DNA of 64,000 bases. Origin: an uncultured virus (IMG/VR IMGVR_UViG_3300042864_000170). Its lineage: Duplodnaviria > Heunggongvirae > Uroviricota > Caudoviricetes. This document shows positions 2,943-47,528 of this stretch, in pieces. Every line of letters begins with the position of its first letter. Within the stretch, counting starts at the first letter, position 1. The stretch lies in IMG/VR virus record IMGVR_UViG_3300042864_000170; one strand, written 5' to 3'. A model generated the notes under the pieces. It searched no databases. It had not been told where the DNA came from and was given only the letters and a program-made list of their open reading frames with translations. Position numbers and translations under genes: made by a program.

Positions 2943-3387
2943 TATTAAGCGTGAACTAAATGCAGTAGACAGTCGCAACTATGACTTTTACGAAAACCTC
3001 ACCGACGAGGAAAAGAAAGCATTCAGTCCTTACATCTTAATGAGGTATACTGCTAATGTGCAAGGTGATCAATCATTGCAAGAATGGTTCCTAGAAAGGA
3101 CTAACGAGTATGTTAATAAAAATCATTGGGAATTAAGTAAGAATCATAGACCCTTGTTGTGGAAATTATTTGCAGCAACTGGTATTGGTTCTAACATGTA
3201 TCATCCTTATCTTGCCGCAGGTAAAAAGGGCAAAGCAAATAAGATTGAAAAACTGTTAGCTGAAATTTATCCTGCATGGAAGCTAGATGACATTAAGACG
3301 TTAGCTAGCATGATGACTAAGAAAGACATCGACGAACTGTTTGACAAAATGGGTTTTGACAAGAAGCAACGAAAAGATTACGAATGA
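2923..3387 (+). CDS. Possible clamp-loader small subunit (T4 gp62-like)
   Basis: Size and FSPYILMRY..N..VN pattern recall gp62; replication context; weak. Confidence 0.4.
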   Translation: MATAKLDIKRELNAVDSRNYDFYENLTDEEKKAFSPYILMRYTANVQGDQSLQEWFLERTNEYVNKNHWELSKNHRPLLWKLFAATGIGSNMYHPYLAAGKKGKANKIEKLLAEIYPAWKLDDIKTLASMMTKKDIDELFDKMGFDKKQRKDYE

Positions 3388-16558: not shown

Positions 16559-17305
16559 ATGCGTGTAGCCTTAATCAGCGGCGGCCATCCCAGGTTTACC
16601 GGAGACTTTATTGCTTTAATGCATCAACTAACTGGCTTTGAGTCTGCGGACCTCTATCTAAATTTTTGGAACAGTGACTGGGTTTCGACTGAAGCAGAGG
16701 GCAGAGCTAGGATAGAATCAGTGCTGTTGCCAAATTACCGTTTAGCAAAACTAAAGATTACAGAACAACCAGCATGGAATCTTCCACTACACTCGCTGTC
16801 ACATCCGCCGGCCTCTCCTGAAAACATTCGTTGGTGGTATCAACGTAGAATAGGAATGTGGCAATCCTTGTACATGGCCTTTGATTTAATTGACCAGGAC
16901 TACGATCTTGTAATTAGATTTAGACCAGACGGCATGCTAAATAGAATTATCGATCTAAGATCACTTGATGTTCAAGATGACATTGTGATTCCTAAAAATG
17001 GATGTGGGTGGAGTCAATGGCCTGTCAATGATCAATTTGCCTTAGGTACTTATAATAGTATGCGATTGTACGCTGACATAGGTAGACAATATAATCAGCT
17101 GGTAGTAGAATCAGATCCACAATGGGAACACAACGGACACGGAAACTGGTCCGGAGAACATATACTGGGCCACTACCTTAATAAGAACAATATAAAATAC
17201 AGATTAGAAAACTTCGATCACGTCTTAACCACAAGAGGTCGTTCTAAGTTTACTGACAAACATTATCACTTGCCCGTTACGCAAGATCCAACAATACTAT
17301 CATGA
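16559..17305 (+). CDS. Putative glycosyltransferase-like protein (G.PRF / YDLVIR.RPD family)
   Basis: Paralog of 19790-20557 and 20554-21330. Confidence 0.5.
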   Translation: MRVALISGGHPRFTGDFIALMHQLTGFESADLYLNFWNSDWVSTEAEGRARIESVLLPNYRLAKLKITEQPAWNLPLHSLSHPPASPENIRWWYQRRIGMWQSLYMAFDLIDQDYDLVIRFRPDGMLNRIIDLRSLDVQDDIVIPKNGCGWSQWPVNDQFALGTYNSMRLYADIGRQYNQLVVESDPQWEHNGHGNWSGEHILGHYLNKNNIKYRLENFDHVLTTRGRSKFTDKHYHLPVTQDPTILS

Positions 17306-18678
17306 ATAAACTTGTAATCTTTGACTTAGATGGTGTACTGATAGAAAGTAGAGAACTACACTATCATAGCCTAAATGCCGCATTAGAATCTGTTGATAAA
17401 AAATATGTGATCAACAGAGACGAACACCTTAGTGTATATGACGGACTCAATACTACTAAAAAATTAAAATTACTATCTGAAACAAAAGGATTGCCTGCAG
17501 AATTTCATGATCTAATATGGCGTAAAAAACAAGAAGCTACATTTGATCTAATTCGCAAATTTGATTTTGATTATAAACTAATTGACATATTCACTAGACT
17601 AAAAAAGCAAGGTTACTTGATTGCAGTAGCCAGTAACAGCATACGAGAAACTGTTAAACTAAGTCTGCTTAAAATAGGAGTCATGGAATATGTTGATTAC
17701 TACGTTAGCAATCAAGATGTTACTTTACCTAAACCGTATCCAGAGATGTACTGGCAGTGTATGACAGTCTGCAATGCCCTACCTCGCAATACACTAATCA
17801 TTGAAGACAGTCACATTGGTAGACAAGGTGCATTGGACAGTGGTGGAAACTTACTGGCTGTAGAAGACTCACACGATGTGACCTGGTCAAAAATTAATAA
17901 TAAATTATCACATATGAACTCACAAACAATTAAAAATAATATTCCTTGGAAAGACAGTAAACTTAATGTGCTGGTACCCATGGCAGGTGCAGGTAGTAGA
18001 TTTGCACAACAAGGATACACATTCCCTAAACCTTTAATTGAAGTCAACGGCAAACCGATGATTCAAGTAGTTGTGGAAAATCTAAACATCGACGCACACT
18101 TTATTTTCATTGTACAAAAAGAACATTACGAAAAATACAATCTAAAGTATTTGCTCAATCTAATTGCACCAGGATGTGATATTGTGCAGGTCGAAGGAGT
18201 AACTGAAGGGGCAGCTTGCAGTACATTGCTGGCTAAAGATTATATCAACAACGATGCTCCGTTAGTTATGGCCAACAGTGATCAATTCATCAAATGGAAC
18301 AGTAACGAATGTATGTACGCATTCAACGCAGATGAAATTGACGGGGGTATCATTACCTTTGAAGCGAGCCATCCAAAGTGGAGTTATGCCCGTGTAGGAG
18401 ATGACGGCTTTGTCAGTGAAGTTGCTGAAAAGAAAGTTATCAGCAACGATGCCACTGTTGGAGTTTACTACTGGAAGCACGGCAGTGACTACGTTAAATA
18501 TGCCGAAGAAATGATTGAAAAGAACATTCGTGTTAACAATGAATTTTATGTTTGCCCCGTGTTTAATCAAGCAATTGAAGCAGGTAAGAAAATTAAAGTT
18601 AAGAAAATTCAAAAGATGTGGGGTATAGGCACTCCGGAAGATCTAAATCATTTCTTAGCAAATCATAAAGAAGATTAA
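17302..18678 (+). CDS. HAD phosphatase fused to sugar-phosphate nucleotidyltransferase
   Basis: FDLDGV...KPYP...EDS; PMAGAGSRF..PKPLI. Confidence 0.85.
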   Translation: MNKLVIFDLDGVLIESRELHYHSLNAALESVDKKYVINRDEHLSVYDGLNTTKKLKLLSETKGLPAEFHDLIWRKKQEATFDLIRKFDFDYKLIDIFTRLKKQGYLIAVASNSIRETVKLSLLKIGVMEYVDYYVSNQDVTLPKPYPEMYWQCMTVCNALPRNTLIIEDSHIGRQGALDSGGNLLAVEDSHDVTWSKINNKLSHMNSQTIKNNIPWKDSKLNVLVPMAGAGSRFAQQGYTFPKPLIEVNGKPMIQVVVENLNIDAHFIFIVQKEHYEKYNLKYLLNLIAPGCDIVQVEGVTEGAACSTLLAKDYINNDAPLVMANSDQFIKWNSNECMYAFNADEIDGGIITFEASHPKWSYARVGDDGFVSEVAEKKVISNDATVGVYYWKHGSDYVKYAEEMIEKNIRVNNEFYVCPVFNQAIEAGKKIKVKKIQKMWGIGTPEDLNHFLANHKED

Positions 18679-24139: not shown

Positions 24140-24200
24140 TTTGCTTCCTTTAGTGCGTTGTTGATGTATGTATTATATGATCTTTTTACAGAGTTGTCAA

Positions 24201-24291
24201 GCTCTTTGTTGAACACATTAAAAGGAATCTAGTGCCCGTTGGTCCGTGGAGCCCGAACACTAAAAGGGATCTAATGCGTTCAACAAAGGGC
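24201..24291 (-). ncRNA. Long imperfect RNA hairpin with a central bubble
   Basis: 22-bp outer stem (one mismatch) and 9-bp inner stem, four G-U pairs on the minus strand. Confidence 0.55.
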
Positions 24292-24304
24292 TCGCGCCCC
24301 TTGC

Positions 24305-24655
24305 TTAGTCCATTCGGCTTCCGGCGTAGACCTTGTCCAAGCCCAACTTAGCCTTGAGCACCTCTGCGTATGCATAGGCACCCGCTTCCAGGATGTCCAA
24401 GCTCTGAGCAGCCGCCTTGCCTGGATTCCACAGCTGGAGCGAACCTGTGTAGTCTTTGCGGAAGCCAGCGGCTTGCAGGGCCTTGCCCAACTTGCTGTTG
24501 GAGCGTACACCCCACACATTGACCCAAGCAAAGCCACAAGCGCCACGGTCACCGCCCAGTGCGGCATAGGCCTGCTTAACAGCTGAGCGAGCAGCCAGTG
24601 CGGCTTCGTTGGTTGCGTCTTGCACGGCGTCCAGGTTAAAGTCTTTAGCGTTCAT
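24305..24655 (-). CDS. Early hypothetical protein (GACGFAWV motif)
   Basis: Own promoter and AAGGAG SD. Confidence 0.75.
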   Translation of the reverse strand: MNAKDFNLDAVQDATNEAALAARSAVKQAYAALGGDRGACGFAWVNVWGVRSNSKLGKALQAAGFRKDYTGSLQLWNPGKAAAQSLDILEAGAYAYAEVLKAKLGLDKVYAGSRMD

Positions 24656-24720
24656 TTAAAAGCTCCTTAGTGCGTTGTTGATGTATGTATTATAACAAGG
24701 TTTTACCACCTTGTCAACTG

Positions 24721-24921
24721 TTATTTGCTGGTGCTGTTGTGGCTTTTAAACAACATGCCGCAGAGGAAGTTCAAGCCCCATGCTTGGAACAGAGTGACTT
24801 CCTTCAGTCCAAACAGTTCGGGCATCAACCAGTCCCACAGGAGCATAGTGGGCAGGGCCATGATCAAGCTGATGCCAACTAGAGTTGCAACGGCTAGGAC
24901 AAAAGCGGCGACGGTTTGCAT
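24721..24921 (-). CDS. Small membrane protein
   Basis: Hydrophobic; start reassigned to MQTV. Confidence 0.6.
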   Translation of the reverse strand: MQTVAAFVLAVATLVGISLIMALPTMLLWDWLMPELFGLKEVTLFQAWGLNFLCGMLFKSHNSTSK

Positions 24922-24935
24922 AGTGCGATCCTTGT

Positions 24936-25154
24936 TTACTTGTTCAACTTGTTCAGGGCATCCAGGTGCTCTGCTTTGGCCAGCTCGATGTCGTAGACCA
25001 TCTTGCACAGATAGACTATCATGCCTACGCAGAAGCCAATGCCAATCTGTTCTACGGTGAAGTAGGTGAACACTACGTTGGCACAGAAGCCTGCGATAAG
25101 GGCAATGCCCAGGAGTTTGCCCATGTTGAGCAGTGCGGTTTGTTTAGGAGTCAT
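24936..25154 (-). CDS. Small membrane protein
   Basis: Two TM segments; start MTPKQ. Confidence 0.6.
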   Translation of the reverse strand: MTPKQTALLNMGKLLGIALIAGFCANVVFTYFTVEQIGIGFCVGMIVYLCKMVYDIELAKAEHLDALNKLNK

Positions 25155-25155
25155 T

Positions 25156-25290
25156 TCATTTTCCTTTAGTTTGTTTGGCTTCCTGAGCGGCAATCTTGCC
25201 GGAGTAGGCTTTGCCTGCGGTGTGGATCAGACCAGTCTTGGTGTAGGTAATAACGCCGCCGGTGCTTGATGGAATTGATTTCTGTGTCAT
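25156..25290 (-). CDS. Small early protein (44 aa)
   Basis: AAGGA SD after promoter 25318-25346. Confidence 0.55.
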   Translation of the reverse strand: MTQKSIPSSTGGVITYTKTGLIHTAGKAYSGKIAAQEAKQTKGK

Positions 25291-25340
25291 TGTGTGTCCT
25301 TGTTTGTTTATGTGTGTATTATAGCACGGAAAAGCCTCGG

Positions 25341-25397
25341 TGTCAACCCCTGCGAAGTACCCAGGCGAGTTGCAGGGTCTAGTGGCAGGGGTTGGCA
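25341..25397. repeat. 57-bp palindromic direct repeat, copy 1
   Basis: 54/57 identical to 30429-30485; ends form TGTCAACCCCTGC/GCAGGGGTTGRCA inverted repeat. Confidence 0.9.
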
Positions 25398-25407
25398 CTC
25401 CGGCCAA

Positions 25408-25647
25408 TTATGCTATTTCTTTAAAGACTTTGTAGCCACGAGCGGTCAAGGTTGAGATAGCCTGTTGGATCTCTACGGCCTTACCGTGCTCCCACTCCAG
25501 CATCTCTTTGGCACCCTTGATGGTGTCTTCATCGCCGTACTGGTTGAAGAAGTTGTGCTTGTAGGAATAGAACTTACGACCATCCTCGTCCAGTCGCATC
25601 TGGATGGTGCCAAGGCCCCTGTAGTCTACGATCTCGTTTAGCTTCAT
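25408..25647 (-). CDS. Early hypothetical protein
   Basis: Own promoter, AGGAG SD. Confidence 0.7.
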   Translation of the reverse strand: MKLNEIVDYRGLGTIQMRLDEDGRKFYSYKHNFFNQYGDEDTIKGAKEMLEWEHGKAVEIQQAISTLTARGYKVFKEIA

Positions 25648-25732
25648 CTTTTGCTCCTAGTGTGTTAGTGTATGCTTGTATTATAACGCCAATTTACCAG
25701 AGTGTAAACCAATAGCCCTTGCGGGCTAAGGG

Positions 25733-26119
25733 TTATACCCAGCCTTCTACCATCATAACGGGCTTCTTAAGGGCTCGCTTAACAAAGGTCTCGGGCTCGT
25801 CGTCAACCCGCACTAGCATGTAGCCAAATGCCTCTACCAAGTCCACTTCTGCCACTTCTAGTTCCACGCCTGCTTTCTCAAAGGCAATGTTCATCTTTGT
25901 TAGGGCATACTTAACGCCTGCACAGAAGGCCTCGTGCTCGCTGTCTGTAACGTCTTCAAAGTCGAACGCTTCTACCATCACTGCCTCGTAGTCCTGTCCG
26001 TCTGCTACAATGAACGGGCGGATCTTAGCCCAAGCCTTCTGGTCCACGCAGTCAAAATGGTCACAGGCTTCGTTAAGGTCGAAACTGTTAAACGCATCAT
26101 AGTTTACTTTTTTAGCCAT
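25733..26119 (-). CDS. Acidic early hypothetical protein
   Basis: Start MAKKV downstream of promoter. Confidence 0.7.
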   Translation of the reverse strand: MAKKVNYDAFNSFDLNEACDHFDCVDQKAWAKIRPFIVADGQDYEAVMVEAFDFEDVTDSEHEAFCAGVKYALTKMNIAFEKAGVELEVAEVDLVEAFGYMLVRVDDEPETFVKRALKKPVMMVEGWV

Positions 26120-26180
26120 CTGTCGCCCCTTTTGTGTTAGTGTGTATGTATTATAACTTCGTTTTACTACTCTGTCAACC

Positions 26181-26307
26181 ACCCTACGCTCTGTAGGGTT
26201 ATTATATCCGTTGCCCCACCTAAGTGCCCCAGTTCCTCTAGGGCTTTAACACTGTTCCTCAGCGTCCTTAAATGCTCTTTACTTCAGCAACCTTATTCTT
26301 TCTTCTT
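26181..26307 (-). ncRNA. Promoter-driven small RNA with two AGGAA-loop hairpins (RsmY/CsrB-like)
   Basis: Perfect promoter 26314-26342, no AUG, three-way junction with G-U pairs. Confidence 0.7.
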
Positions 26308-26327
26308 GTATGTATTATAACGTCTTT

Positions 26328-26546
26328 TCAAAGACCTGTCAACCTAAAGGGTTTTAGAACTTCTTTGGCTTCTTTGTACTGTGGCAATTTAGCCACAGCC
26401 GCATCGATGGTCATTAAGTGGGCCTGCACCAACAATTCTTCTGCATACAGGCGGTCGTCTTCCGACACTTCCGTGTACCATTGTTTGAGCTGTTTGGTAG
26501 GCAGGTTCAACAAGAACATTAGGTTACCCTTATCGTGATCGTTCAT
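26328..26546 (-). CDS. Early hypothetical protein
   Basis: Start MNDHD, TAATG-coupled. Confidence 0.65.
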   Translation of the reverse strand: MNDHDKGNLMFLLNLPTKQLKQWYTEVSEDDRLYAEELLVQAHLMTIDAAVAKLPQYKEAKEVLKPFRLTGL

Positions 26547-26629
26547 TAAAATTCTCCCATGATAATCATTGCAAGACCCATGACGATCACGGGCATCAGT
26601 ACTATGGCTAGGTTGATCATTGCTTGCAT
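26546..26629 (-). CDS. 27-aa hydrophobic microprotein MQAMINLAIVLMPVIVMGLAMIIMGEF
   Basis: Below ORF-track cutoff; TAATG-coupled at both ends. Confidence 0.6.
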   Translation of the reverse strand: MQAMINLAIVLMPVIVMGLAMIIMGEF

Positions 26630-26853
26630 TAGATCCACTCCTTATAGTCGCCATGTTCTTCGTTGTCGTTGAAGCCTGCGGTGTAGGCCACGATCTCATT
26701 GGGTGTCATATCCTTGAGAGTGACACGCCCTGAGGCTTTGGTGTCACCTAGGTAGTAGTGGGGATTGTAGTCCCTGCGGTAATAGCTGTCTGCCATGCCG
26801 CGATCATAAGGACCACCGTGTCGTGTGTCCATCTCGATGTGTTCTCTAATCAT
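26629..26853 (-). CDS. Early hypothetical protein (HGGPYDRG..DSYY)
   Basis: Own promoter, AAGGAG SD. Confidence 0.7.
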   Translation of the reverse strand: MIREHIEMDTRHGGPYDRGMADSYYRRDYNPHYYLGDTKASGRVTLKDMTPNEIVAYTAGFNDNEEHGDYKEWI

Positions 26854-26920
26854 CTTTGCTCCTTAGTGTCTATGTGTGTATTGTAACAGGAATTCAAAGC
26901 CCTGTCAACCACTAAGGTCT

Positions 26921-27238
26921 TTACCAAACCAACTCTTTTGCTGGGTAACGGATGGAACCTTCGTAGTCCAACTGGCTCTGCTCAAACTCTGTGAGGTAGT
27001 CGTCCTTGACAATGCGGAAGTCGATCACTGTTTCACGGAAGTGATCGTTGTCTGACTCAATCTGTGCTCGCAGGCACATGACCGCCATGGTAGCATCGGC
27101 AGAGCCACCTTTGAACTTCTTGACCACGTAGTCCGAACCGCCCTTGGCTTTCCAGTACTGTGGGCACTCGTTCTTGCCGTCCCAATCATGGGCACCGTAG
27201 TTCTCGTAGTATTGTGTAGTGATTAACAGTTTAGCCAT
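26921..27238 (-). CDS. Early hypothetical protein (ENYGAHDWDG..CPQYWK.KGG)
   Basis: Own promoter, AAGGAG SD. Confidence 0.75.
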   Translation of the reverse strand: MAKLLITTQYYENYGAHDWDGKNECPQYWKAKGGSDYVVKKFKGGSADATMAVMCLRAQIESDNDHFRETVIDFRIVKDDYLTEFEQSQLDYEGSIRYPAKELVW

Positions 27239-27306
27239 TGTGTGCTCCTTGTTGCGATGTATGTATTATAACATCAAAAAGAAACCCTGTCAAGTGCAGG
27301 GTTATT

Positions 27307-27381
27307 TGGTCCGGCCACCAGGAATCGAACCTGGATTGACTGCTTAGAAGGCAGATGTTCTGTCCATTGAACTATGGCCAG
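27307..27381 (-). tRNA. tRNA-Arg (UCU)
   Basis: Cloverleaf: CTGGCCA/TGGCCGG acceptor, CTTCTAA anticodon loop, GGTTCGATTCC T-arm, encoded CCA. Confidence 0.95.
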
Positions 27382-27387
27382 GAATCT

Positions 27388-27675
27388 TTATCTACAGTGA
27401 GTGCGCCAGCCAAAGAACTGACCATAGCCGTTATAGACCGGAGTATGGTAGCATACCGGCTGTGGGGGCAAGGGTTGGTAGATGATCTGCGGTTGTGGTT
27501 GGTAGATCACAGGAGGTTGTTGAACGATTACAGGAGGCTGAACGGGCTGTTGTTTAGCCATTGAATTGCCTATGAATCCGCCTAGGATGATACCCAGCAA
27601 GACATCCTCTGGACCAGCTGCCTGTGCAGTGCCCAAGGATGCGATCAGTGCGATTGAAGTAAGGATTCGTTTCAT
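27388..27675 (-). CDS. Secreted/membrane Pro-Gln-rich protein
   Basis: Signal peptide, GxxxG-like segment, PPVI repeats. Confidence 0.65.
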   Translation of the reverse strand: MKRILTSIALIASLGTAQAAGPEDVLLGIILGGFIGNSMAKQQPVQPPVIVQQPPVIYQPQPQIIYQPLPPQPVCYHTPVYNGYGQFFGWRTHCR

Positions 27676-27701
27676 AGTTCTATTATACAGTCAATTATTT
27701 A

Positions 27702-27911
27702 TCAAGTCAACTCTTTAAATGTTCGCCCTTTGAGATCCAGCTTGAGCGGTGTACGGAACTTCTTTACCTGATCTGTGCCCGCAGGTATGTAGGCAATAGC
27801 TGTGGCACTTCGACCTGTAACCCGCTCGTTGAAGATGTAGACATGGTTACCGGCGTTGCTGTCTGTCCACTGTGTGGTTTCCTGATAGACTTTAATCGAT
27901 TTGGATGTCAT
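27702..27911 (-). CDS. Early hypothetical protein
   Basis: In cassette operon. Confidence 0.6.
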   Translation of the reverse strand: MTSKSIKVYQETTQWTDSNAGNHVYIFNERVTGRSATAIAYIPAGTDQVKKFRTPLKLDLKGRTFKELT

Positions 27912-28077
27912 GTATCTTACCCTCGTTGAAGATGTAGTAAAGGTTCATAGAACCGTAGTAGACCCAGATGCAGTCATTGCCCGGAGTCATTGTGTAGTGT
28001 GTGATTCCCTTGCGGGCCATGTCCTCTTCGACTAGGATGACCTCTAGTGGGTTAAGGTCTGGATGTATCTTAAGCAC
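27892..28077 (-). CDS. Early hypothetical protein
   Basis: In cassette operon. Confidence 0.55.
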   Translation of the reverse strand: MLKIHPDLNPLEVILVEEDMARKGITHYTMTPGNDCIWVYYGSMNLYYIFNEGKIHDIQID

Positions 28078-28273
28078 GTTTCAGCACTCCGAAGATCGAG
28101 TTCTGGAGTTCAGCGGCTTCCTCAGTCTCGAGGTAGAAGTCAGTCCGTGGATCCCAGTAGCGGCCTTCCTTAGGATCGTAGTAGGCAACACGGCCATTGG
28201 GATAGTGGAAGGGTCCTTCAAGTCCTTTGCGTGGACCGTATTCCTTGTTGTGTTTGAAAACAATGTAGCTCAT
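28070..28273 (-). CDS. Early hypothetical protein (GLEGPF..YYDPKEG.Y)
   Basis: Own promoter, AAGGAG SD. Confidence 0.7.
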   Translation of the reverse strand: MSYIVFKHNKEYGPRKGLEGPFHYPNGRVAYYDPKEGRYWDPRTDFYLETEEAAELQNSIFGVLKRA

Positions 28274-28644
28274 TGACTGCTCCTTGTTGCGATGTATGTA
28301 TTATAACACCGGGATAGTATTCTGTCAACCAATTCCTTGCGTCTTGTAGGGTCTTTAAGGGCTCTTCTCTATCGCTGAGAACACGATGGTTTCCACAGGC
28401 TCGGACATGATAGCCTACTTGATCATTGCCTATGATACGAAAGCTTCGATCTCTGCGGAACCATTCTTCGTCGACATTGTTTAAGTTCATGTATGTATTA
28501 TAGCAAGGTTTTACCACTCTGTCAACCTCTTTTGGTGTTGTATTTTTGCCACAAAAGGTGAGCCCCGCAACAGCTTCACAGCGTGGCAGGGCTCGGGGGT
28601 TTGCCTGGGACACTACCCCCAGGACTTCGGAGCGAACTCTCTAC

Positions 28645-28914
28645 TTACGCAAGGCCGAGAGCCATAGCCTTGTAACCTGCGGCAATGATCTTGCGGCTTG
28701 GTTGACCCATAACATACTCGGTCACTTCAACACCGTTACCGGCTTTGCGGTTGTTTGCATACACTGCGAAACCGCTTTGACGAATACGGCTGACTTCAGC
28801 TGTGACATTCTTGATACCGAAACGCTTTGCAGCCTGTGCAGGAGTCAATGCCTCGCCTGCTTTCAATGCTGTGAATAGTTTCCCGGCTTTGGTTTCTGGA
28901 TTAATCGTTTTCAT
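28645..28914 (-). CDS. Winged-helix DNA-binding protein
   Basis: LTPAQAAKRFGIKNVTAEVSRIRQSG HTH pattern. Confidence 0.65.
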   Translation of the reverse strand: MKTINPETKAGKLFTALKAGEALTPAQAAKRFGIKNVTAEVSRIRQSGFAVYANNRKAGNGVEVTEYVMGQPSRKIIAAGYKAMALGLA

Positions 28915-28979
28915 TTTGTCTTCCTTGTTAGATACTGCTGTGCAGTTATTATCTATTATAGAGAAGACTGACTGGTAAA

Positions 28980-29198
28980 TCAAGCACTAATTTTGCCAAA
29001 TTCACGATCGACATAATGTCCGATCAGTTTACGCTGGATAAGGGTAATCAAATCCCCGTGCTGATCCGAAACAATGAATCGAACAGGGCAACGACCCCAA
29101 GTACCGGACCTTTGGAACTCTGCAAACCATTTGCGGTGTTGCTTGTTCTCCGGATCGAATGCCGTCCAAGGACGACCAATATAATCTAATCTACTCAT
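28980..29198 (-). CDS. Early hypothetical protein
   Basis: Start MSRLD; WGRCPVRF. Confidence 0.6.
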   Translation of the reverse strand: MSRLDYIGRPWTAFDPENKQHRKWFAEFQRSGTWGRCPVRFIVSDQHGDLITLIQRKLIGHYVDREFGKISA

Positions 29199-29282
29199 AG
29201 TGTTCTCTCTGAATACCCCGTTATACATGTTATCGAAGAGGACTTATTGACATTGCCTCTACGCACACTGCAGGGGTTATTC

Positions 29283-29702
29283 TTAGTAAGGGGCGTCTTC
29301 CATGTCAGCCAGCTGGGCAATCACTTGGGCTTTAGTAGGAGTGGGTTTGGCTTCTGCCTTCTTAGCAGCCACCTTGGCTTCGATAGCCTTCATAGTAGGC
29401 TTGGCCTTTGCAGCTTTGGCAACCTTAGCCTCTTTAGCAGGCACTTCGCTACGCTTGTCGATCTCAGCAGCCAGTGCAGCCAACACATCAGCATTGGTCT
29501 TGCCGTTGGTAGTGGCAAAGTCGATCTCCATGAGATAAGCAACAGCGTCCTCTTTGGTCATAGCGTGTTTCAGCTCGATGATATCAATATCGGTATGACC
29601 GTTCTTGATCAGCACCTTGGTACGCAGTGCGTCATTGGCAAAACGAACTTTGAATTGGCCATCTTGTTTAGAAACGCCAGCATGGGTAAAAGATTTAGAC
29701 AT
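29283..29702 (-). CDS. Early protein with Ala/Lys-rich (histone-like) tail
   Basis: KVRFAND core; AKVAKAAKAKP tail. Confidence 0.65.
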   Translation of the reverse strand: MSKSFTHAGVSKQDGQFKVRFANDALRTKVLIKNGHTDIDIIELKHAMTKEDAVAYLMEIDFATTNGKTNADVLAALAAEIDKRSEVPAKEAKVAKAAKAKPTMKAIEAKVAAKKAEAKPTPTKAQVIAQLADMEDAPY

Positions 29703-29784
29703 AAAATTTCCTTTGTGTTTGTCTGTGTGTACGAACAGCACCGCGCTGTCCATGTATTAATTATAACCTCTTTTGGAGGAACTG

Positions 29785-29964
29785 TCAACCAAAATATGGC
29801 GAATAGACTTCCTCCTCTTGTGGCGTATCAGCAACACTGTTGCCTTCAATCCAACCGTAGACCATCTCCACGGGGCAATCCAATGTCAGTGCAATCATTC
29901 TGGCACTCATGCCATCGATGTACAGTTGCTCAATGTCGTATGCCAGTTCAGCGATCTTGCTCAT
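29785..29964 (-). CDS. 59-aa HTH-like protein (not in ORF track)
   Basis: MSKIAELAYDIEQLYIDGMSARMIALTLDCPVEMVYGWI...; ATGA-coupled. Confidence 0.6.
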   Translation of the reverse strand: MSKIAELAYDIEQLYIDGMSARMIALTLDCPVEMVYGWIEGNSVADTPQEEEVYSPYFG

Positions 29965-30374
29965 TCCATTTCCTCCTCTTGCTTCTCTTGTTCAAATGCC
30001 AGTTCTAACGGAATCCAATTCTCTTGTGTGCCGTAGTGACGAACATACCACTGAGCCTTGCCTTTCCAGTTCATGCTGAGGATGTAGTCGTACTCCTCGC
30101 CGCTGACATTTTTGTAATAGTCCTCAATGTCTTTGTATTTCTCAATCGACAACTCTTCACCGCGTTGTGTGTAGGCACCCTGTTTAGTTTCCTCAACAGA
30201 GTCGCACAGGCTTGAGAAACCGCCCAAGTCAATCAAGTCACGCAGTTTGAACGGATCGCTGTAGTGCTTGAGCAAGAGCTGGCCGTTGTGTGCCAGGTAG
30301 CCGTCCCAGTGACAGTAGACTTGCTGTACTGTGCCATCTGCAAACTCAAGTGCGATAGTGCTTCGTGTACCCAT
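29961..30374 (-). CDS. Early hypothetical protein (MGTRS..YCHWDGY)
   Basis: Own promoter, GGAG SD. Confidence 0.75.
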   Translation of the reverse strand: MGTRSTIALEFADGTVQQVYCHWDGYLAHNGQLLLKHYSDPFKLRDLIDLGGFSSLCDSVEETKQGAYTQRGEELSIEKYKDIEDYYKNVSGEEYDYILSMNWKGKAQWYVRHYGTQENWIPLELAFEQEKQEEEME

Positions 30375-30428
30375 TGTGTGCTCCAGTGTGTTTGTGTAAG
30401 TGTTAATTATAGCAAGGTTTTACCAAAC

Positions 30429-30485
30429 TGTCAACCCCTGCGAAGTACCCAGGCGTGTTGCAGGGTCTAATGGCAGGGGTTGACA
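30429..30485. repeat. 57-bp palindromic direct repeat, copy 2
   Basis: Matches 25341-25397. Confidence 0.9.
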
Positions 30486-30487
30486 TT

Positions 30488-30730
30488 TCAGCAATCGGGA
30501 TCAAAGTCTGCCCACTCTTGCGCTTCGTCGGGCTGTCCGTCAGCTTCCTCTTGCTCCAGGCGCTCTGCACAGTCCAGGAAGTTTTGGCACAGCTCGCGCA
30601 TATACTCATAAGCTGCTTTCTCAGTGCGGCTCAAGTCCAGCTCGCTCATAGAGTCCGCATTGTCCATTGCTTCCACGCAGTGACGCAGATCATTCATTGT
30701 GTTCTCAAACATGCAGTAAGACATATTCAT
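30488..30730 (-). CDS. Acidic early protein (MSYCMFENT..DL)
   Basis: Own promoter, AAGGAG SD. Confidence 0.7.
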   Translation of the reverse strand: MNMSYCMFENTMNDLRHCVEAMDNADSMSELDLSRTEKAAYEYMRELCQNFLDCAERLEQEEADGQPDEAQEWADFDPDC

Positions 30731-30802
30731 ATCAGCTCCTTTGTTGTGTATGTGTGTATTATAACACTGTTTGGCTACCCTGTCAACCAAAGACCCTACA
30801 GC

Positions 30803-31066
30803 TTACTCGGGCTTTACGCCCATAGCTTCAACAGCTTTCACGCCCTCTGCTGTAAGATAAAGTACACGATTGCGGGTAGCTGTAACAACAAACACAGCGC
30901 CCTCTTGCCCATCGTTCCAGCTGTCGTAGCGCACAGCAGGGTTTTTAAGCAGAGCAGTTATAGCCATCTTACGAGCACGTTCGCCCTCGTTGTAAGTGCC
31001 ATTGCATCCGCACATGCAGCCGGGCTTGCCAGTGTAAGAGCGGGTAGTTTGATTGACTGTAAGCAT
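30803..31066 (-). CDS. Early protein with CMCGC motif
   Basis: Own promoter, AAGGAG SD. Confidence 0.65.
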   Translation of the reverse strand: MLTVNQTTRSYTGKPGCMCGCNGTYNEGERARKMAITALLKNPAVRYDSWNDGQEGAVFVVTATRNRVLYLTAEGVKAVEAMGVKPE

Positions 31067-31116
31067 GTCTACTCCTTGTTGCGATGTATGTATTATAACA
31101 AGATTTTGCCAACTTG

Positions 31117-31341
31117 TCAAGCCAGCGTAGCAGAAACCTTATCCGCTGTAGGGTCATACTTGAGGAACAGTTTGCCCGCACCGTCATCAGTGTCTGTCAC
31201 AAGGTAGCAGAACTCGTGCCCGTTGGTGATGCCCAGGAAGCGGGCTGTCTTGAGTTTGGGTCGGCCTTTGACGGGCAGTGCCTGCTCTAGCATAACTGCT
31301 GGCATGTTGGTGAGGAGTTTGAGTTTGTCCGCTGTAATCAT
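31117..31341 (-). CDS. Early hypothetical protein
   Basis: ATGA-coupled; stop lies inside the next -35 box. Confidence 0.6.
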   Translation of the reverse strand: MITADKLKLLTNMPAVMLEQALPVKGRPKLKTARFLGITNGHEFCYLVTDTDDGAGKLFLKYDPTADKVSATLA

Positions 31342-31493
31342 TCCGCCTCCAACTCGCAGTCCTCTAACACAGCATCTGCGGTCTCAATAAAGCCCAACAG
31401 CTCATTGCCTGCACAGTTCTTGCCCTGTGCAAACAGGAAGTCCGCAAACTGTTCCATCTTTCCCAACAGCTCTTCAACATCTGTACGCTTCAT
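31338..31493 (-). CDS. 51-aa acidic early protein (not in ORF track)
   Basis: MKRTDVEELLGKMEQFADFLFAQG...; promoter and AGGAG SD. Confidence 0.65.
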   Translation of the reverse strand: MKRTDVEELLGKMEQFADFLFAQGKNCAGNELLGFIETADAVLEDCELEAE

Positions 31494-31575
31494 GTCTGCT
31501 CCTGTTTAGTGTATGTGTGTATTATAACGCAAAAGGGCACTGCTGTCAACAATGCCCTTCCACTTTACTGTACTA

Positions 31576-31962
31576 TTAAATGCCCTCGCACTCCGCAATC
31601 ACAGCGTTAACATGCTGGGGGTCCAAACGCATTAAGCCCGCAATAAACTTATCTCCTACATCGCACGACACGTAATTGTCGCCCTGCATACCCTGCTCGC
31701 TGTACTCCACGTCGTTTGCTTCTGCTTGCGTAAAGCCCAACGTAACCAAGTACTCACGCAGTTCTGCTTTAAACTGCTTGTCTGTGTAAATTAGTCCCAT
31801 TGTGTTAACGTCCCAGCTGTCTGCTGTAAAGTACACACACAGCTCGCCGAAGTCTCTCTCGTCGTTAATGAACTGCAAGTCTAGTTTCGTAACGTCTACA
31901 GCTTTAGCTGTGCGGCTCCAGTAGCCGAGTCCGTTTGTGTGCAGTGTAGTGTATGTTTGCAT
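31576..31962 (-). CDS. Early hypothetical protein (LIYTD..F; YSEQGMQG)
   Basis: Own promoter, AAGGA SD. Confidence 0.7.
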   Translation of the reverse strand: MQTYTTLHTNGLGYWSRTAKAVDVTKLDLQFINDERDFGELCVYFTADSWDVNTMGLIYTDKQFKAELREYLVTLGFTQAEANDVEYSEQGMQGDNYVSCDVGDKFIAGLMRLDPQHVNAVIAECEGI

Positions 31963-32045
31963 TTTAATTTCCTTTTCGTTTAACATGTGTGTATTATAAC
32001 GCAAAAAGGTACACAGGGCAACCAAAGACCCTATGTGCTGTAGGG

Positions 32046-32222
32046 TTATAAAGTAAACACTGCTACAGTGTCTCCTGCTTGCTTAATGCTTTGTGTTGCA
32101 TGTGCGAGCATAGTTTTATATTTGTACATGCTTGCTTTATTTTTTTGTGCTACTGCTAGCGGCACAAATTTTCCTGCAATTAGATAAGTGTTATTGCGTT
32201 GCAGTGTATACATTTTTAACAT
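32046..32222 (-). CDS. Small basic early protein
   Basis: Own promoter, AGGA SD. Confidence 0.55.
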   Translation of the reverse strand: MLKMYTLQRNNTYLIAGKFVPLAVAQKNKASMYKYKTMLAHATQSIKQAGDTVAVFTL

Positions 32223-32305
32223 TTTGGTTCCTGTTTGTTTTAACATGTGTGTATTATAACACTGTTTTGTAAAACGAGCAACCAAAGCCCCTGGGGGCTG
32301 TAGGG

Positions 32306-32854
32306 TTATTCTTGATCCTCTTGGTTCTCTTCTTCCCAGTCAGCCATACTCTCGCTGATGCAGAAGTAGTCGTCTAACTCCTCGCCGATCATGTCACGCA
32401 CCGTGTCAGCAGTTGCGCCACCGTACTCACAGCAGTCGTCACTACCGTTGTCCCACTTGCCCACAAACTGCATGCCAGGCTCGTAGTAGAAGGCCACTAG
32501 ATCAAAGCCCAAGTCCATCAACTGCTCATATGCACGGATGGGTGGTGCCCAGGCACTGTCGAAGCCAGCTGTGACAGTGTTAGCATCCTCGATCTCTACA
32601 TTGCTAGACTCTACATCCCACTTGGTGCCCCAGTTGGCCACATTGAAGTCATACCAGGAACTGTATCCGTACTTCTCTCGGTTAGCTTTTTCAGCATCGT
32701 TGGTGCCCATCTGAGCCACAGTGTCCAGCAGTTCGGCAGGGCAAGGAATGAACTCCTGCAGGAACTTGCCCTCTTGCAGAGCCTTGGCGGCCCGCTGGAT
32801 CATTTGGGGGTCTGCGTGACGCAGTGTAATACCGTTTGAACACCAATTAGGCAT
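32306..32854 (-). CDS. DUF1281/YubB-like ferredoxin-fold protein
   Basis: MPNWCSN, NWGTKWD, FDSAWAPP, YYEPG. Confidence 0.7.
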   Translation of the reverse strand: MPNWCSNGITLRHADPQMIQRAAKALQEGKFLQEFIPCPAELLDTVAQMGTNDAEKANREKYGYSSWYDFNVANWGTKWDVESSNVEIEDANTVTAGFDSAWAPPIRAYEQLMDLGFDLVAFYYEPGMQFVGKWDNGSDDCCEYGGATADTVRDMIGEELDDYFCISESMADWEEENQEDQE

Positions 32855-33059
32855 CGTAGCTCTCCTCGCCAAGTTCAGTAATCTCTTCTTCCACCACACT
32901 GATATCAACAATGCGGAACCGTTGTGTCATATCGCTAACACCACAGAACGCATCTGTGAAGCTTTGGTTCTCTGCCAGAAACTCCAGCACACTTTGACGA
33001 TCCGTGCCCTCGGGCACTTCAATCTCCTGACGGAGAACAGTTGTAACCATTGCTTTCAT
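32847..33059 (-). CDS. Early hypothetical protein
   Basis: TAATG-coupled start MKAMV. Confidence 0.6.
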   Translation of the reverse strand: MKAMVTTVLRQEIEVPEGTDRQSVLEFLAENQSFTDAFCGVSDMTQRFRIVDISVVEEEITELGEESYDA

Positions 33060-33328
33060 TAGATGATCTCCTCTTCCCACTCGTAAAAAGAAACAGCCGG
33101 GTCCAACTTCTTCAACTGCTTTGCCGCAGTCATCAGTTCCTTGTAGCGACGATTGACTTCTGTGCGGCTCAGTTCGCCATCACAGGTCAAGTTCTCCGGA
33201 CTCAATGCGGCATCGATCATGTCTGCGATACGCTGGCGACCCTTGGCACTCTGGATCTCGTATTGCTCGCCTTTGAAGAAACTGTTCCAGTGATTCTTCT
33301 GCTCGATAAACTTCTCTAGTGCTTTCAT
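33059..33328 (-). CDS. Early hypothetical protein (LSPENLTCDGE)
   Basis: Own promoter, AAGGAG SD. Confidence 0.7.
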   Translation of the reverse strand: MKALEKFIEQKNHWNSFFKGEQYEIQSAKGRQRIADMIDAALSPENLTCDGELSRTEVNRRYKELMTAAKQLKKLDPAVSFYEWEEEII

Positions 33329-33384
33329 CTTTGCTCCTTAGTGTGTAAGTGTGTATTATAGCAAGAAAACAGGGGATTGTCAAC

Positions 33385-33565
33385 TACCCGTTAGTCCGTC
33401 TCTAACGTTCGGTGTGCCAAACATTACGCCCTAGTTCCCCGTCAGCAACTCGTGTAAACTTTCGTTTACAACTGCCTTCATGCCCCACAGCAACCTGTCC
33501 CCGTCGGAACTCTTCGCTTGCTGTGGGCCCTAACGGACTAGGTAACCCTGTTTATTTCTTACTAT
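33385..33565 (-). ncRNA. Promoter-driven multi-branch structured RNA (about 180 nt)
   Basis: Perfect promoter 33571-33599; closing stem UAGUCCGU/ACGGACUA and three internal hairpins. Confidence 0.7.
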
Positions 33566-33595
33566 GCCTTATTATAGCAAGGTTTTACCAACTTG

Positions 33596-33826
33596 TCAAC
33601 CAAATGCTTTGTATAACCCTACAATGCCTATGGCTAATGATACAACGTTGACCACAGCCTGTGGCTTATTTGCCACACGGATAGCCCATGCCAAGAACGC
33701 TACAGTGCCCACAGCGAACGCGATAATATTGTAAGGATAGACACTGGGACCTATTGCGTTGAGTACGTGCCCGGCAATGATCGCCACGGCACCCACCCAC
33801 TGTAGTACTTCATTCTTATTAAACAT
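33596..33826 (-). CDS. Small three-TM membrane protein
   Basis: Hydrophobic; stop lies in the next -35 box. Confidence 0.65.
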   Translation of the reverse strand: MFNKNEVLQWVGAVAIIAGHVLNAIGPSVYPYNIIAFAVGTVAFLAWAIRVANKPQAVVNVVSLAIGIVGLYKAFG

Positions 33827-34199
33827 CAACACCTTCACGATCAACCATGTCGCTCAACTCAGCGAATTTTTGTTTGTACTTGTAGACTTCGCGTTTGGCT
33901 TCGTGCAGTGCTTCGCCGATGCAGTCCTCTGCGGTGCCGTCTGTCAGTACTTCGCGAGCATCCTTGTACAGACATCCGCCCAGGTAGTGCGAACCCATCT
34001 CAAGGCTGTCAACCATTACACGCACTCGCAACATGAACCAATCCAAGTTGCCATTGTCGATGTCTTTACACATCTTGCTAACTTCTTCTTCACTATCAAA
34101 GTCAAAGCAATCACGTGGGTTCAGGTCTTCGTAGCTCTTGTCTACGATCACAGTAAAGCCATCGCGCTCGTAAGTTGCCAGTTCATCGTAGTATCGCAT
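33819..34199 (-). CDS. Early hypothetical protein
   Basis: In cassette operon. Confidence 0.65.
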   Translation of the reverse strand: MRYYDELATYERDGFTVIVDKSYEDLNPRDCFDFDSEEEVSKMCKDIDNGNLDWFMLRVRVMVDSLEMGSHYLGGCLYKDAREVLTDGTAEDCIGEALHEAKREVYKYKQKFAELSDMVDREGVDV

Positions 34200-34208
34200 A
34201 GTTGCCTT

Positions 34209-34439
34209 TCAATAGTGGTGACGTGAGCCGGGATCGCAGAAGTCTGCATTGTCGGGAGTCCACTCCTCGTCTTCTTCAACAATGGTGTCCTCATCCTCTT
34301 CGTCCAGGATGTCGTTAGCACGGCACATGTCTTTAACATCGTCCTCGCTCATGTAGGCCAATGCCATCTCTGCCACAGCTTCTGCTGAGATCAAACCCTC
34401 ATCCATCATCTCTAACAGCTTCGTAGTGTACTTGCGCAT
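34209..34439 (-). CDS. Acidic early protein
   Basis: Own promoter; YMSEDDV.DM. Confidence 0.65.
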   Translation of the reverse strand: MRKYTTKLLEMMDEGLISAEAVAEMALAYMSEDDVKDMCRANDILDEEDEDTIVEEDEEWTPDNADFCDPGSRHHY

Positions 34440-34501
34440 ATCAGCTCCTTGTTGCGATGTATGTATTATAACAGGTTTTACCAACCCTGTCAACCGAAGG
34501 G

Positions 34502-34858
34502 TTATTCAACGCCCACAGACACATCGACCTCAATATCTGTAACGTCGCCAGCGAGATCGTACTTAATACCCGTCACAGCCGCGCCGTAGTTGACCTGCTT
34601 GAGACGCTCTCTGATCATGCTTTCGAGGTCGCCCATCATATCGCCAATGAAGTCAGTGGCGCTGTCTTTAACGCCACGCAGGGTTTCGTTGATCCCATTG
34701 CGCGACATGTCCTCTTGCCCGTCCATGATCATCTCAATGAAAGCTTCTGTCTGGCTGATCAGTACTTGCTCTACAACGGCATTGACCAGTTCGCGCTTGC
34801 CAAACAACAACTCAACGGCCTTAAAGGTCTGCTCACCTGCTTTATACACTACAGTCAT
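34502..34858 (-). CDS. Acidic early protein
   Basis: Own promoter, AGGAG SD. Confidence 0.65.
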   Translation of the reverse strand: MTVVYKAGEQTFKAVELLFGKRELVNAVVEQVLISQTEAFIEMIMDGQEDMSRNGINETLRGVKDSATDFIGDMMGDLESMIRERLKQVNYGAAVTGIKYDLAGDVTDIEVDVSVGVE

Positions 34859-34909
34859 CGTCTTCTCCTGTTAAACAAGTATGTATTATAACACGGTTTT
34901 ACCAAAGTG

Positions 34910-35182
34910 TCAAGCGGTTTCTAACATATTTGCAGGCACCCTCCACAGGCCCTGGTTAGTACGAACTGTTACGTATTTGATCGCGATCTTGTCTACGACA
35001 CCCTGCATAGTGATGCCTGTTTTAGTGCTAGTGAACTTCACAGCACTGCCCAGCGTGACAGAGCGTTTGGTCTTCTCTGCAAGGCGTGCTCGGGCAAATT
35101 TCACAGCGTCGATGATGCTGGTCAGTTGATCGTTAGTGAAGTTGCCTGCAAGAATCTCATTGTTGATAGATTGAACGGACAT
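34910..35182 (-). CDS. Early protein with SH3-like C-terminus
   Basis: Own promoter; G.V.KIAIKYVTV..WRVPANML. Confidence 0.65.
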   Translation of the reverse strand: MSVQSINNEILAGNFTNDQLTSIIDAVKFARARLAEKTKRSVTLGSAVKFTSTKTGITMQGVVDKIAIKYVTVRTNQGLWRVPANMLETA

Positions 35183-35209
35183 ATCAGCTCCTTTGTGTGT
35201 AAGTGTATA

Positions 35210-35371
35210 TTATACGGTAAAACCGATAACCTTGTCAACCATTGGGTTTTTGCGAGCCACAGCCCGCCATGCCCGATTGGCCTTGGTCCATTGTTCGTGA
35301 TTGGTGGTAAAGCCCGGGAATCGATCCTTGGCCCAGATCACAAAGTTCAAACGTTCAATTTCGTTCTTCAT
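35210..35371 (-). CDS. Small early protein
   Basis: Coupled to the upstream stop; runs through the next promoter. Confidence 0.45.
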   Translation of the reverse strand: MKNEIERLNFVIWAKDRFPGFTTNHEQWTKANRAWRAVARKNPMVDKVIGFTV

Positions 35372-35649
35372 CACATGCTCCAGTAGAGTTCGCTTGACGG
35401 ATCGCAACTGCGGGGAGTGTCGTGTGCGATCTCAACCATTGCCCCAGTCATCAAGTTCTTAACAGTCTTCATGCTGGGAGTCCAGTCGAAGCGGAAGCCG
35501 TCTTCTGGCCTGTACAAATGGAACAAGTCCGCTACAGTGCGGCGCATGGCATTGTCATCCGCTACGGGCCAAACTGTAGTAGAGAACAAGCGCTCTCCGG
35601 TCTTTGTACGACGATCTGCTTTGTAGATGTATAGTGTATAACTCATCAT
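35371..35649 (-). CDS. Early hypothetical protein (DTPRSCDPSSELYWSM)
   Basis: Own promoter, AAGGAG SD. Confidence 0.7.
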   Translation of the reverse strand: MMSYTLYIYKADRRTKTGERLFSTTVWPVADDNAMRRTVADLFHLYRPEDGFRFDWTPSMKTVKNLMTGAMVEIAHDTPRSCDPSSELYWSM

Positions 35650-35720
35650 TGCTCCTTAGTGTGTAAGTGTCAATTATAACACGGTTTTACCAACTTGTCA
35701 AGTGTTACTTGAAGTGACAC

Positions 35721-36059
35721 TTAGTCCCCACGAACGTCTGTATTTAAAACAGGCTTAACCATTCTGCGGATCTCTACTTCACGCTTGTGGGCTTCTGCCT
35801 TGCCTCGTATAACTTCATGCACGTATACTTCAATCTCGCTCTTGTCGCTCAGTGTGCGCAACTCAGCACAGAGCAGCCAGTTCTTAGTCTCAGTCTTGGC
35901 ACGATAGAAGTGTTTAGCGGCACGACTCAAAACACTCTTGTTCACAGTGCTCTCTGTCTTAGCTGTGACGCCAATGTAGTTCTTGCCGTTGACCACAAGC
36001 TCATAGATGATATGATTGCGGTCTACACGCTTCTTACGGGTTACTGTTTGTGTCGTCAT
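35721..36059 (-). CDS. GIY-YIG-like protein
   Basis: IIYEL..NYIG, R, E, LN; ATG 5 nt from the -10 box. Confidence 0.6.
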   Translation of the reverse strand: MTTQTVTRKKRVDRNHIIYELVVNGKNYIGVTAKTESTVNKSVLSRAAKHFYRAKTETKNWLLCAELRTLSDKSEIEVYVHEVIRGKAEAHKREVEIRRMVKPVLNTDVRGD

Positions 36060-36186
36060 AGTGTATTATAGCAAGGTTTTACCAATCAGTCAACCAAAGA
36101 CCCTCCAAATGATCTGTGTTCAAAATACAACAAGACAGGCACTCCAAAAGATGCTATAATACATACTTAAACAACAAAGGAAGCAC

Positions 36187-41982: not shown

Positions 41983-42021
41983 AAGATTCGGAAGCATTCT
42001 CTACTAAGATAATTAGTAGTA

Positions 42022-47525: not shown

Positions 47526-47528
47526 CTG

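Follow-up and report, generated by a model that had tools for sequence, protein, structure and literature searches.

What is transcribed from a perfect promoter that is not followed by a gene? The question is raised by positions 26342-26181 on the minus strand of the stretch of DNA analysed here (the window, 64,000 nucleotides of an uncultured virus of the Caudoviricetes). A sequence-only reading of this stretch had proposed a phage small RNA that resembles the RsmY/CsrB sponges and titrates the host regulator CsrA/RsmA at the start of infection. Phage-encoded small RNAs are few and almost none of them has a known role. A full-text literature search returned, within the article text that it covered, no report of a phage-encoded CsrA sponge RNA.

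A promoter cassette without a reading frame

A pattern scan of the window found a 12/12 match to TTGACA-N17-TATAAT at 26342-26314 (-), with the -35 box TTGACA at 26342-26337, a spacer of 17 nt, and the -10 box TATAAT at 26319-26314. The -35 box overlaps the final codons of the upstream gene, which encodes a 72-aa protein. Judged from the position of the -10 box, the transcript should start at about 26307, and it is predicted to begin with an A-rich single-stranded 5' leader (26292-26307). The next promoter on the minus strand is again perfect (26150-26178) and drives the downstream gene of a 128-aa protein (26119-25733). Neither an ATG nor an ORF of at least 25 aa starts on the minus strand between the RNA promoter and position 26178, and the earlier observation of a perfect promoter without a following AUG is thus correct. 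The hairpin ACCCUAC-AGAGC-GUAGGGU (26181-26199), which adjoins the next -35 box, is a cassette-boundary hairpin that is present in only part of the RNA family described below, and it is not followed by a U tract. The 128-aa protein (25733-26119) is acidic and is not matched by Pfam. In relatives, its gene usually lies next to the RNA (e.g. L136, L160, L162, L171, L146), and it is also found without the RNA (L015).

The promoter is one of many. Perfect copies of TTGACA-N17-TATAAT occur 19 times in the 64-kb window against an expectation of 0.01, and 18 of the 19 are located on the minus strand, where they span 24172-35701. The usual plan of these minus-strand cassettes consists of a hairpin, the promoter, an ACAUACA...AAGGAGC leader, and an ATG. 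Only two of the 18, those at 26342 and 33599, do not have the usual UTR, AAGGAG, and ATG. The RNA occupies the slot of the ORF in a standard promoter-to-hairpin cassette, with 11 promoters of the array upstream and seven downstream of it. The whole array extends over 24172-36093 and contains four near-perfect sigma-70 consensus promoters in addition to the 18 perfect ones. Nearly every promoter is followed by the ACAUACA...AAGGAGC leader and a small ORF without Pfam match, and many are preceded by a short hairpin that touches the -35 box. This part of the minus strand is a modular early region made of promoter cassettes. Searching 35 early-region proteins against Pfam revealed no RNA-binding or CsrA-like protein, the only matches being a winged-helix HTH and an AAA ATPase.

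The second cassette without an ORF (33384-33599) consists of a perfect promoter at 33599-33571 and about 185 nt without an SD-ATG. Its fold has a free energy of -65.3 kcal/mol (z -5.25; none of 200 shuffles as good), and it has no match in Rfam, where the best hit, CRISPR-DR24 at E 3.4, is noise. It is probably another phage non-coding RNA. The sole tRNA of the window, tRNA-Arg(TCT) at 27307-27381 (-), is located directly upstream of the promoter at 27293 and about 1 kb upstream of the RNA; no other tRNA was called by ARAGORN or Rfam RF00005.

The phage and its closest relatives

The window belongs to a giant phage. By its DnaB-type helicase, the closest cultured relative is Pseudomonas phage PA5oct with 53% identity, and the helicases of jumbo phages of Agrobacterium, Sinorhizobium, and Xanthomonas reach 44-52%. 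Outside the early region, the window encodes HAD/nucleotidyl-transferase genes (17302-18678) and, within 40453-50272, a cluster of radical-SAM/SPASM and B12-binding radical-SAM genes (42022-44967, 44948-46297, 48308-50272), which may serve DNA or peptide modification. Two regions with collagen-repeat proteins (55841-58540, 61780-63471) may encode fibres.

The nearest record, an IMG/VR contig of 107 kb that is rated 29% complete (G001), is identical at the locus and is therefore uninformative on the RNA. Ten viral loci were retrieved with the upstream 72-aa protein, and five of these are identical at the RNA locus. A further one, which is 99% identical (L014), keeps the RNA with two stem changes, both from G-U to A-U. 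Between the upstream gene and the RNA cassette this relative carries an extra cassette with a promoter and a small ORF (3214-3430). Three relatives whose flanking protein is 62-78% identical (L015-L017) miss the RNA, and the promoter of the upstream gene runs straight to the downstream gene. The covariance model did not find the RNA elsewhere in these three records, which are 4-16% complete. Because some close relatives do not have the RNA at the syntenic place, the RNA cassette is best seen as an insertion, and the RNA is either dispensable to these phages or has spread recently. Cassettes seem to be gained and lost as units, as in the extra cassette of L014 and the missing RNA cassette of L015-L017.

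Fold of the transcript

The segment 26308-26181 on the minus strand has a minimum free energy of -39.5 kcal/mol with a z-score of -5.41, and none of 200 shuffles is as stable, whereas the plus strand of the same segment reaches only -25.5 kcal/mol with a z-score of -2.93. The assignment to the minus strand, which the sequence-only reading had preferred, is therefore right. Its fold had been drawn by eye, and the minimum free energy structure reproduces every one of the stems named there (P1-P4). The conserved core comprises 92 nt (26205-26296; all positions on the minus strand) and is matched by the covariance model R1 with 116.9 bits. P1 pairs GUUGCU (26286-26291) with GGCAAC (26215-26210). 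It is followed by an 11-nt purine-rich internal loop, J1/2 (GAAGUAAAGAG, 26275-26285), which faces a single G, and by P2, in which CAUUUAAG (26267-26274) pairs with CUUAGGUG (26224-26217). P1 and P2 enclose two hairpins, P3 with GACGCUG-AGGAA-CAGUGUU (26248-26266, loop 26259-26255) and P4 with GCCCUAG-AGGAA-CUGGGGC (26226-26244, loop 26237-26233).

A family of related RNAs

Comparing the locus with 50,697 phage records, by megablast with 1.2 kb and by blastn with 196 nt, gave nothing. In Rfam, the whole window matched only the tRNA-Arg at the gathering threshold, the region 26150-26345 had no match at E <= 10, and the loci of six relatives yielded at E <= 1 only tRNAs and weak matches overlying them. 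The Infernal/Rfam comparison that had been suggested with the sequence-only reading thus leads to no known family, Csr/Rsm included. Because of the missing Rfam match we consider the RNA to represent a new family, which, as far as sequence and model searches reach, is absent from Rfam 15 and from the 50,697 deposited phage genomes.

Relatives were found by pattern scans. A first pattern that was based on the loops gave one true match among the 114 loci listed, a divergent copy inside a tRNA cluster, while the others were mostly noise from coding EE-repeats. A second pattern used P1 and J1/2 alone, leaving the interior of P2, P3, P4, and both loops free, and was run over viral, bacterial-genome, and metagenome collections. 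Model R1 confirmed 88 matches, many of which are duplicates because the viral and metagenome collections overlap. Two weak R1 matches (L168 with 13.7 bits and L189 with 12.9 bits) were dropped. The 88 matches collapse to 40 distinct cores in 45 distinct contexts, all on uncultured phage and metagenome contigs, and many of the contig names suggest freshwater or lake samples. Each of the five records searched contains one copy of the RNA. In the bacterial genome collection none of the 44 pattern-matched loci fits model R1, and this collection therefore provides neither a clue to the host nor a prophage copy. Model R2 had no credible match in PA5oct, Atu_ph07, Phosso, and XaC1 (best match 16 bits, E 0.28). 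Four RNA-library runs contain 5-10% of the sampled words; these are assembled contigs with short low-depth pieces, none of which spans the RNA.

Covariation and conservation

RNAalifold, applied to a MAFFT alignment of the 40 variants that was built from sequence only, returned the same four helices with 26 pairs. In the 28-pair structure 96.6% of the 1120 cells pair, compared to 34-48% if the partners are slid by one to three columns. The covariation score, the percentage of paired cells, and the number of doubly changed cells were reached by none of 500 shuffles. Three pairs are changed on both sides, a number that 99 of the 500 shuffles also reached. For further pair types, every one of the shuffles reached the observed count. 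The covariation in related phages that had been suggested as a check is present with one compensatory pair each in P2 (columns 27/77: UA in 37 and CG in three variants), P3 (columns 32/49: CG in 22 and AU in 17), and P4 (columns 58/68: UA in 18, UG in 10, CG in seven, unpaired in five), the stem of P4 being otherwise nearly invariant. Unpaired cells are found at columns 26/78 of P2 in 13 and at columns 31/50 of P3 in 18 of the 40 variants. All cells of P1 pair with one-sided changes only; the search pattern had fixed GGUUG and all of GGCAAC, so that the last two pairs of P1 could vary on the 5' side only. The segment GAAGUAAAGAG in J1/2 is present in 28 of the 40 variants, and it was also partly fixed by the search pattern. 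Because the variants are close to each other (pairwise identity 78-99%) and not phylogenetically independent, the covariation rests on few events. Mutual information, computed for all variable column pairs, indicated no pseudoknot or tertiary pairing outside the nested helices.

At the DNA level, the core is 94-97% identical in six loci, compared to 73-76% for the adjacent protein gene, and phages whose AAA-ATPase is only 60-61% identical still have the RNA. We regard it as very likely that the locus contains a real gene for a structured RNA. In nine of the 45 contexts (L281, L247, L290, L190, L175, L272, L307, L191, L148) the core is followed by a conserved extension of about 85 nt, which contains a hairpin, GUGCAGAGCAC/GGGCCUAGCCC, with apparent compensatory changes. 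As judged by eye, an AGGAAC of the extension seems to be part of a stem and not of a loop. The window copy does not have this second domain.

The GGA sites in the relatives

The window copy contains the four GGA sites that had been listed, two in the loops of P3 and P4, one as AAGGA, and one as ACGGA. Four GGA sites in this purine-rich transcript of 127 nt are however what is expected by chance (4.5 +/- 1.6 in 5000 shuffles, P(>=4) = 0.72), and the only notable feature is the placement of two of them in loops. The sites were followed in the relatives, for which the search had left both hairpins free. At the apex of P3, GAGGAAC is present in 38 of the 40 variants, with GGGGAAC and GAGAAAC once each, so that GGA is kept in 39 of 40; among the elements left free by the search this is the most conserved one. 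The apex of P4 is GAGGAAC in 24 variants, GAGCAC in 14, and GAGAAC and GAGAAAC in one each, which corresponds to loops of AGGAA, AGCA, AGAA, and AGAAA, and GGA is thus lost in 16 of 40. The AAGGA at the border of P2 and P3 is kept in 14 and the 3' ACGGA in seven of the 40 variants, and 13 variants retain a single GGA in the whole core. Eleven variants have a bulged U in P3, all of them with a 4-nt loop in P4, a link that may reflect shared descent. Conservation in the family thus concerns a single apex of seven letters together with its closing pairs. The comparison with the relatives removes three of the four GGA sites, and the expectation that the loops are kept in homologs holds for P3 and in part for P4.

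Csr/Rsm sponge RNAs should carry many GGA sites, more than expected by chance and mostly in loops or single strands, conserve them, match a Csr/Rsm covariance model, and end at an intrinsic terminator. In the phage RNA, the number of sites is at chance level with two of them in loops, only the site in P3 is generally kept, no Rfam model matches at E <= 10, and the window copy has no U tract, with a crude scan detecting terminator-like sites in seven of the 45 contexts. In addition, the RNA is often the 5' leader of the gene or tRNA that follows. Accordingly, of the proposed phage RNA the conserved, strand-specific, and structured non-coding RNA with a consensus host-type promoter in the early region stands, while its identity as an RsmY/CsrB-like sponge is not supported, and we consider the sponge reading to be weak. 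One conserved hairpin of the AGGA type makes binding of CsrA/RsmA possible, which in a model would occur at one or two sites and not as in a multi-site sponge. Two GGA loops in one genome are not sufficient to call a CsrA sponge.

Genomic contexts of the RNA

In 43 of the 45 contexts the core is preceded by a promoter of the sigma-70 type (two mismatches at most), whose end is 12-31 nt away. In the remaining two the core has no promoter of its own and is found 2 nt after a tRNA-Asp inside an array of nine tRNAs. tRNAs are present within 400 nt in a total of seven contexts, which show four layouts (Trp-RNA-Cys-Lys-Ile; Asp-RNA-Asn-Ala-Glu...; Ser-Ser-RNA-Glu-Asp, as part of an array with at least 11 tRNAs; and RNA-Met), and absent from the other 38. 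The next gene is co-oriented in all of the 43 contexts that are informative, two being too short to tell. In 20 contexts, a second promoter downstream of the core precedes the ORF, in 16 the core runs directly into a Shine-Dalgarno sequence and an ORF 17-111 nt further on, and in seven it runs into a co-oriented tRNA. No promoter thus separates the RNA from the next ORF or tRNA in 23 of the 43 informative contexts, and the RNA could therefore be a cis-acting leader. Within 110 nt of the core, the crude scan gave a terminator-like site in only seven of the 45 contexts.

Possible functions of the RNA

Our preferred reading is that the locus encodes a stable structured phage RNA, whose P3 hairpin with GAGGAAC is the element by which a partner is recognised in trans. 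We give it a probability of roughly 0.45. Host RNA polymerase would produce the RNA at high level from the consensus sigma-70-type early promoter, and in some relatives the RNA would instead be cut out of the precursor of a tRNA operon. The functional unit would be the core of about 82 to 92 nt, in which P1 and P2 would close a three-way junction that holds up the two 7-bp hairpins. The RNA would act through recognition of the apical hairpin P3 (U-GAGGAAC-A), assisted by the identical P4 loop in about 60% of the variants. The partner would most likely be an abundant protein or RNP of the host or the phage, which is bound or titrated early in infection, and CsrA/RsmA is one candidate. Promoter, missing ORF, fold, covariation, family, contexts, and conservation pattern are observations, whereas the accumulation of a discrete RNA, its action in trans, and its partner are inferred. 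The RNA replaces an ORF in the cassette and a tRNA in the array, which argues for a separately acting, cut-out RNA product, and the near-invariant apex of P3 suggests specific recognition by a protein or RNP. In support of a separate product we also count that PA5oct makes four ORF-less RNAs, of which two are abundant (PMC7318152). The occurrence as stand-alone cassette, as 5' leader of mRNAs, and as member of tRNA arrays suggests a general-purpose module for seizing a host machine, for which a regulator, RNA polymerase, and the translation or tRNA apparatus are candidates. The function is directly testable, because 40 variants and covariation support are available, the core is delimited to 92 nt, mutations can be aimed at a single invariant hairpin, and the promoter is likely active in laboratory bacteria.

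A cis-acting leader would explain equally well the constant position close to the promoter, the common orientation of the downstream genes, and the lack of terminators. Such a leader could work like the put RNAs of phage HK022. The nascent RNA with its two hairpins would bind to host RNA polymerase during transcription, and the polymerase would then resist hairpin terminators and Rho in the downstream cassettes or tRNA arrays. The put RNAs are described as about 70 nt long with two stem-loops, putL being located just downstream of PL; putL needs no protein factor and is active even when the nascent transcript no longer tethers it to the complex (PMC9378689). The position of the phage RNA agrees with this, because two stem-loops are found just past the promoter (43/45 contexts, 12-31 nt after the -10 box), the next gene is always co-oriented (43/43) and in 23 of 43 contexts not separated by a promoter, and an own terminator is usually absent. 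The identity of the downstream gene varies, as for a portable module, and the high sequence conservation would be that of a ligand of a conserved host enzyme. However, the downstream gene is preceded by a perfect promoter of its own in 20 of the 43 contexts and would not need such a module there, the window RNA is located late in the promoter array, and its two hairpins lie inside P1 and P2, which differs from the description of put. A put-like leader seems unlikely. By analogy one might imagine, with the same reserve, that promoter and RNA form a portable unit that moves between early cassettes and tRNA arrays of giant lake phages and whose nascent RNA latches onto host RNA polymerase and protects it from termination. 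If true, factor-independent antitermination by an RNA would for the first time be found outside lambdoid phages, and for the first time in the service of tRNA operons. It is unlikely that the RNA is a phage-borne CsrA/RsmA decoy, in which one CsrA dimer would occupy the GGA loops of both P3 and P4 at a distance of about 22 nt and massive early transcription would titrate the regulator. It is attractive that the 5-nt loop of P3 presents A-GGA-A closed by a G-C pair, with GGA kept in 39 of 40 variants and repeated in P4 in 24, and that the consensus promoter implies a high copy number. In addition, the closest cultured relatives include Pseudomonas and Xanthomonas phages, whose hosts possess Rsm proteins. 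Proteins of the CsrA family bind to short hairpins whose loop contains GGA, and csrA alleles are known in phages (PMC7366521). However, the losses of GGA from P4 (16/40) and of the AAGGA (kept in 14/40) and ACGGA (7/40), the 13 cores with a single GGA, and the chance-level count do not fit a decoy. The same is true for the missing Csr/Rsm match in Rfam at E <= 10 and the missing terminator. All seven letters of GAGGAAC are fixed in P3, beyond the GGA, which points to a more specific partner. Furthermore, the five phage records that were searched yielded no csrA, and other relatives infect Agrobacterium and Sinorhizobium. The distribution of CsrA is patchy; some classes of proteobacteria do not have it, and the chromosome of S. 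meliloti carries no csrA (PMC7366521).

The seven contexts in or beside tRNA arrays, with four layouts and a copy that follows tRNA-Asp by 2 nt, could mean that the RNA is a stable RNA with a role in translation or tRNA biology, such as a decoy for a defence nuclease of the host that targets tRNA or rRNA, and travels with the tRNA arrays. The window copy has its tRNA-Arg(TCT) 1 kb upstream, and T4 provides a precedent (PMC3014915). However, neither ARAGORN nor the Rfam tRNA model calls the core, although the flanking tRNAs of the relatives are called, the loops have, by eye, no anticodon-loop or T-loop signatures, and 38 of the 45 contexts have no tRNA within 400 nt. A link to tRNA biology is very unlikely. 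We consider it highly improbable that the RNA is a base-pairing small RNA that recognises mRNAs of the phage or the host through a seed in J1/2 (GAAGUAAAGAG) or in the loops. The 11-nt unpaired, conserved, and purine-rich segment, the exposed loops, and the A-rich 5' leader would suit such a role. However, complements in the window are at chance level, both for the loops (seven sites, two of which are the locus itself, against 5.6 expected) and, with two mismatches at most, for J1/2 (15 against 19.3 expected), and the conservation of J1/2 is partly imposed by the search pattern. A number of other candidates were compared by eye and dropped, as their register or motifs disagree with the RNA and Rfam gives no match; these are a tRNA-like RNA, a Y-RNA-like RNA, boxB/nut, a mimic of the sarcin-ricin loop, a CRISPR-repeat mimic (RNA anti-CRISPR), a type III antitoxin, a riboswitch, and a self-cleaving ribozyme.

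Comparison with known systems

The phage RNA shares with CsrB, CsrC, RsmX, RsmY, and RsmZ that it is non-coding, has a strong promoter, and presents A-GGA in hairpin loops. Bridging of two loops by a CsrA dimer follows a spacing rule, and the two loops of the phage RNA are spaced such that one dimer could bridge them. Unlike the CsrB/Rsm RNAs, it has one or two conserved sites instead of many, with AGCA as second loop in 14 of 40 variants, has neither a terminator nor an Rfam match, and is phage-borne. The promoters of CsrB/Rsm-type RNAs are controlled by GacA/UvrY, whereas that of the phage RNA is a constitutive consensus promoter. The putL and putR RNAs of HK022 are alike in their length of about 70-90 nt, in the two adjacent stem-loops just after an early host-type promoter, and in the co-oriented genes and terminator-like hairpins downstream (PMC9378689). 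They differ in that the hairpins of the phage RNA are enclosed by two more helices and in that it belongs to giant phages of the virulent type and is also found in tRNA arrays.

In PA5oct, a related giant phage dependent on host RNA polymerase, the regions ncRNA001-004 are transcribed without containing an ORF, and two of them are very abundant. In contrast to the RNA described here, they are 236-619 nt long and reported without known promoters (PMC7318152); model R2 finds nothing in PA5oct. The small RNAs RNAC and RNAD of phage T4 have no known role. They are co-transcribed with tRNA genes (PMC3014915), and presumably they are likewise cut out and act on their own. The locus has no sequence match in the phage collection, and most copies of the RNA have their own promoter among early protein genes. 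A position within a phage tRNA array as in T4 is found in seven of the 45 contexts; the window, with its nearest tRNA at a distance of 1 kb, is not one of them. Small stable RNAs of phages are an already known though thinly populated kind, within which a life in both promoter cassettes and tRNA arrays is unusual.
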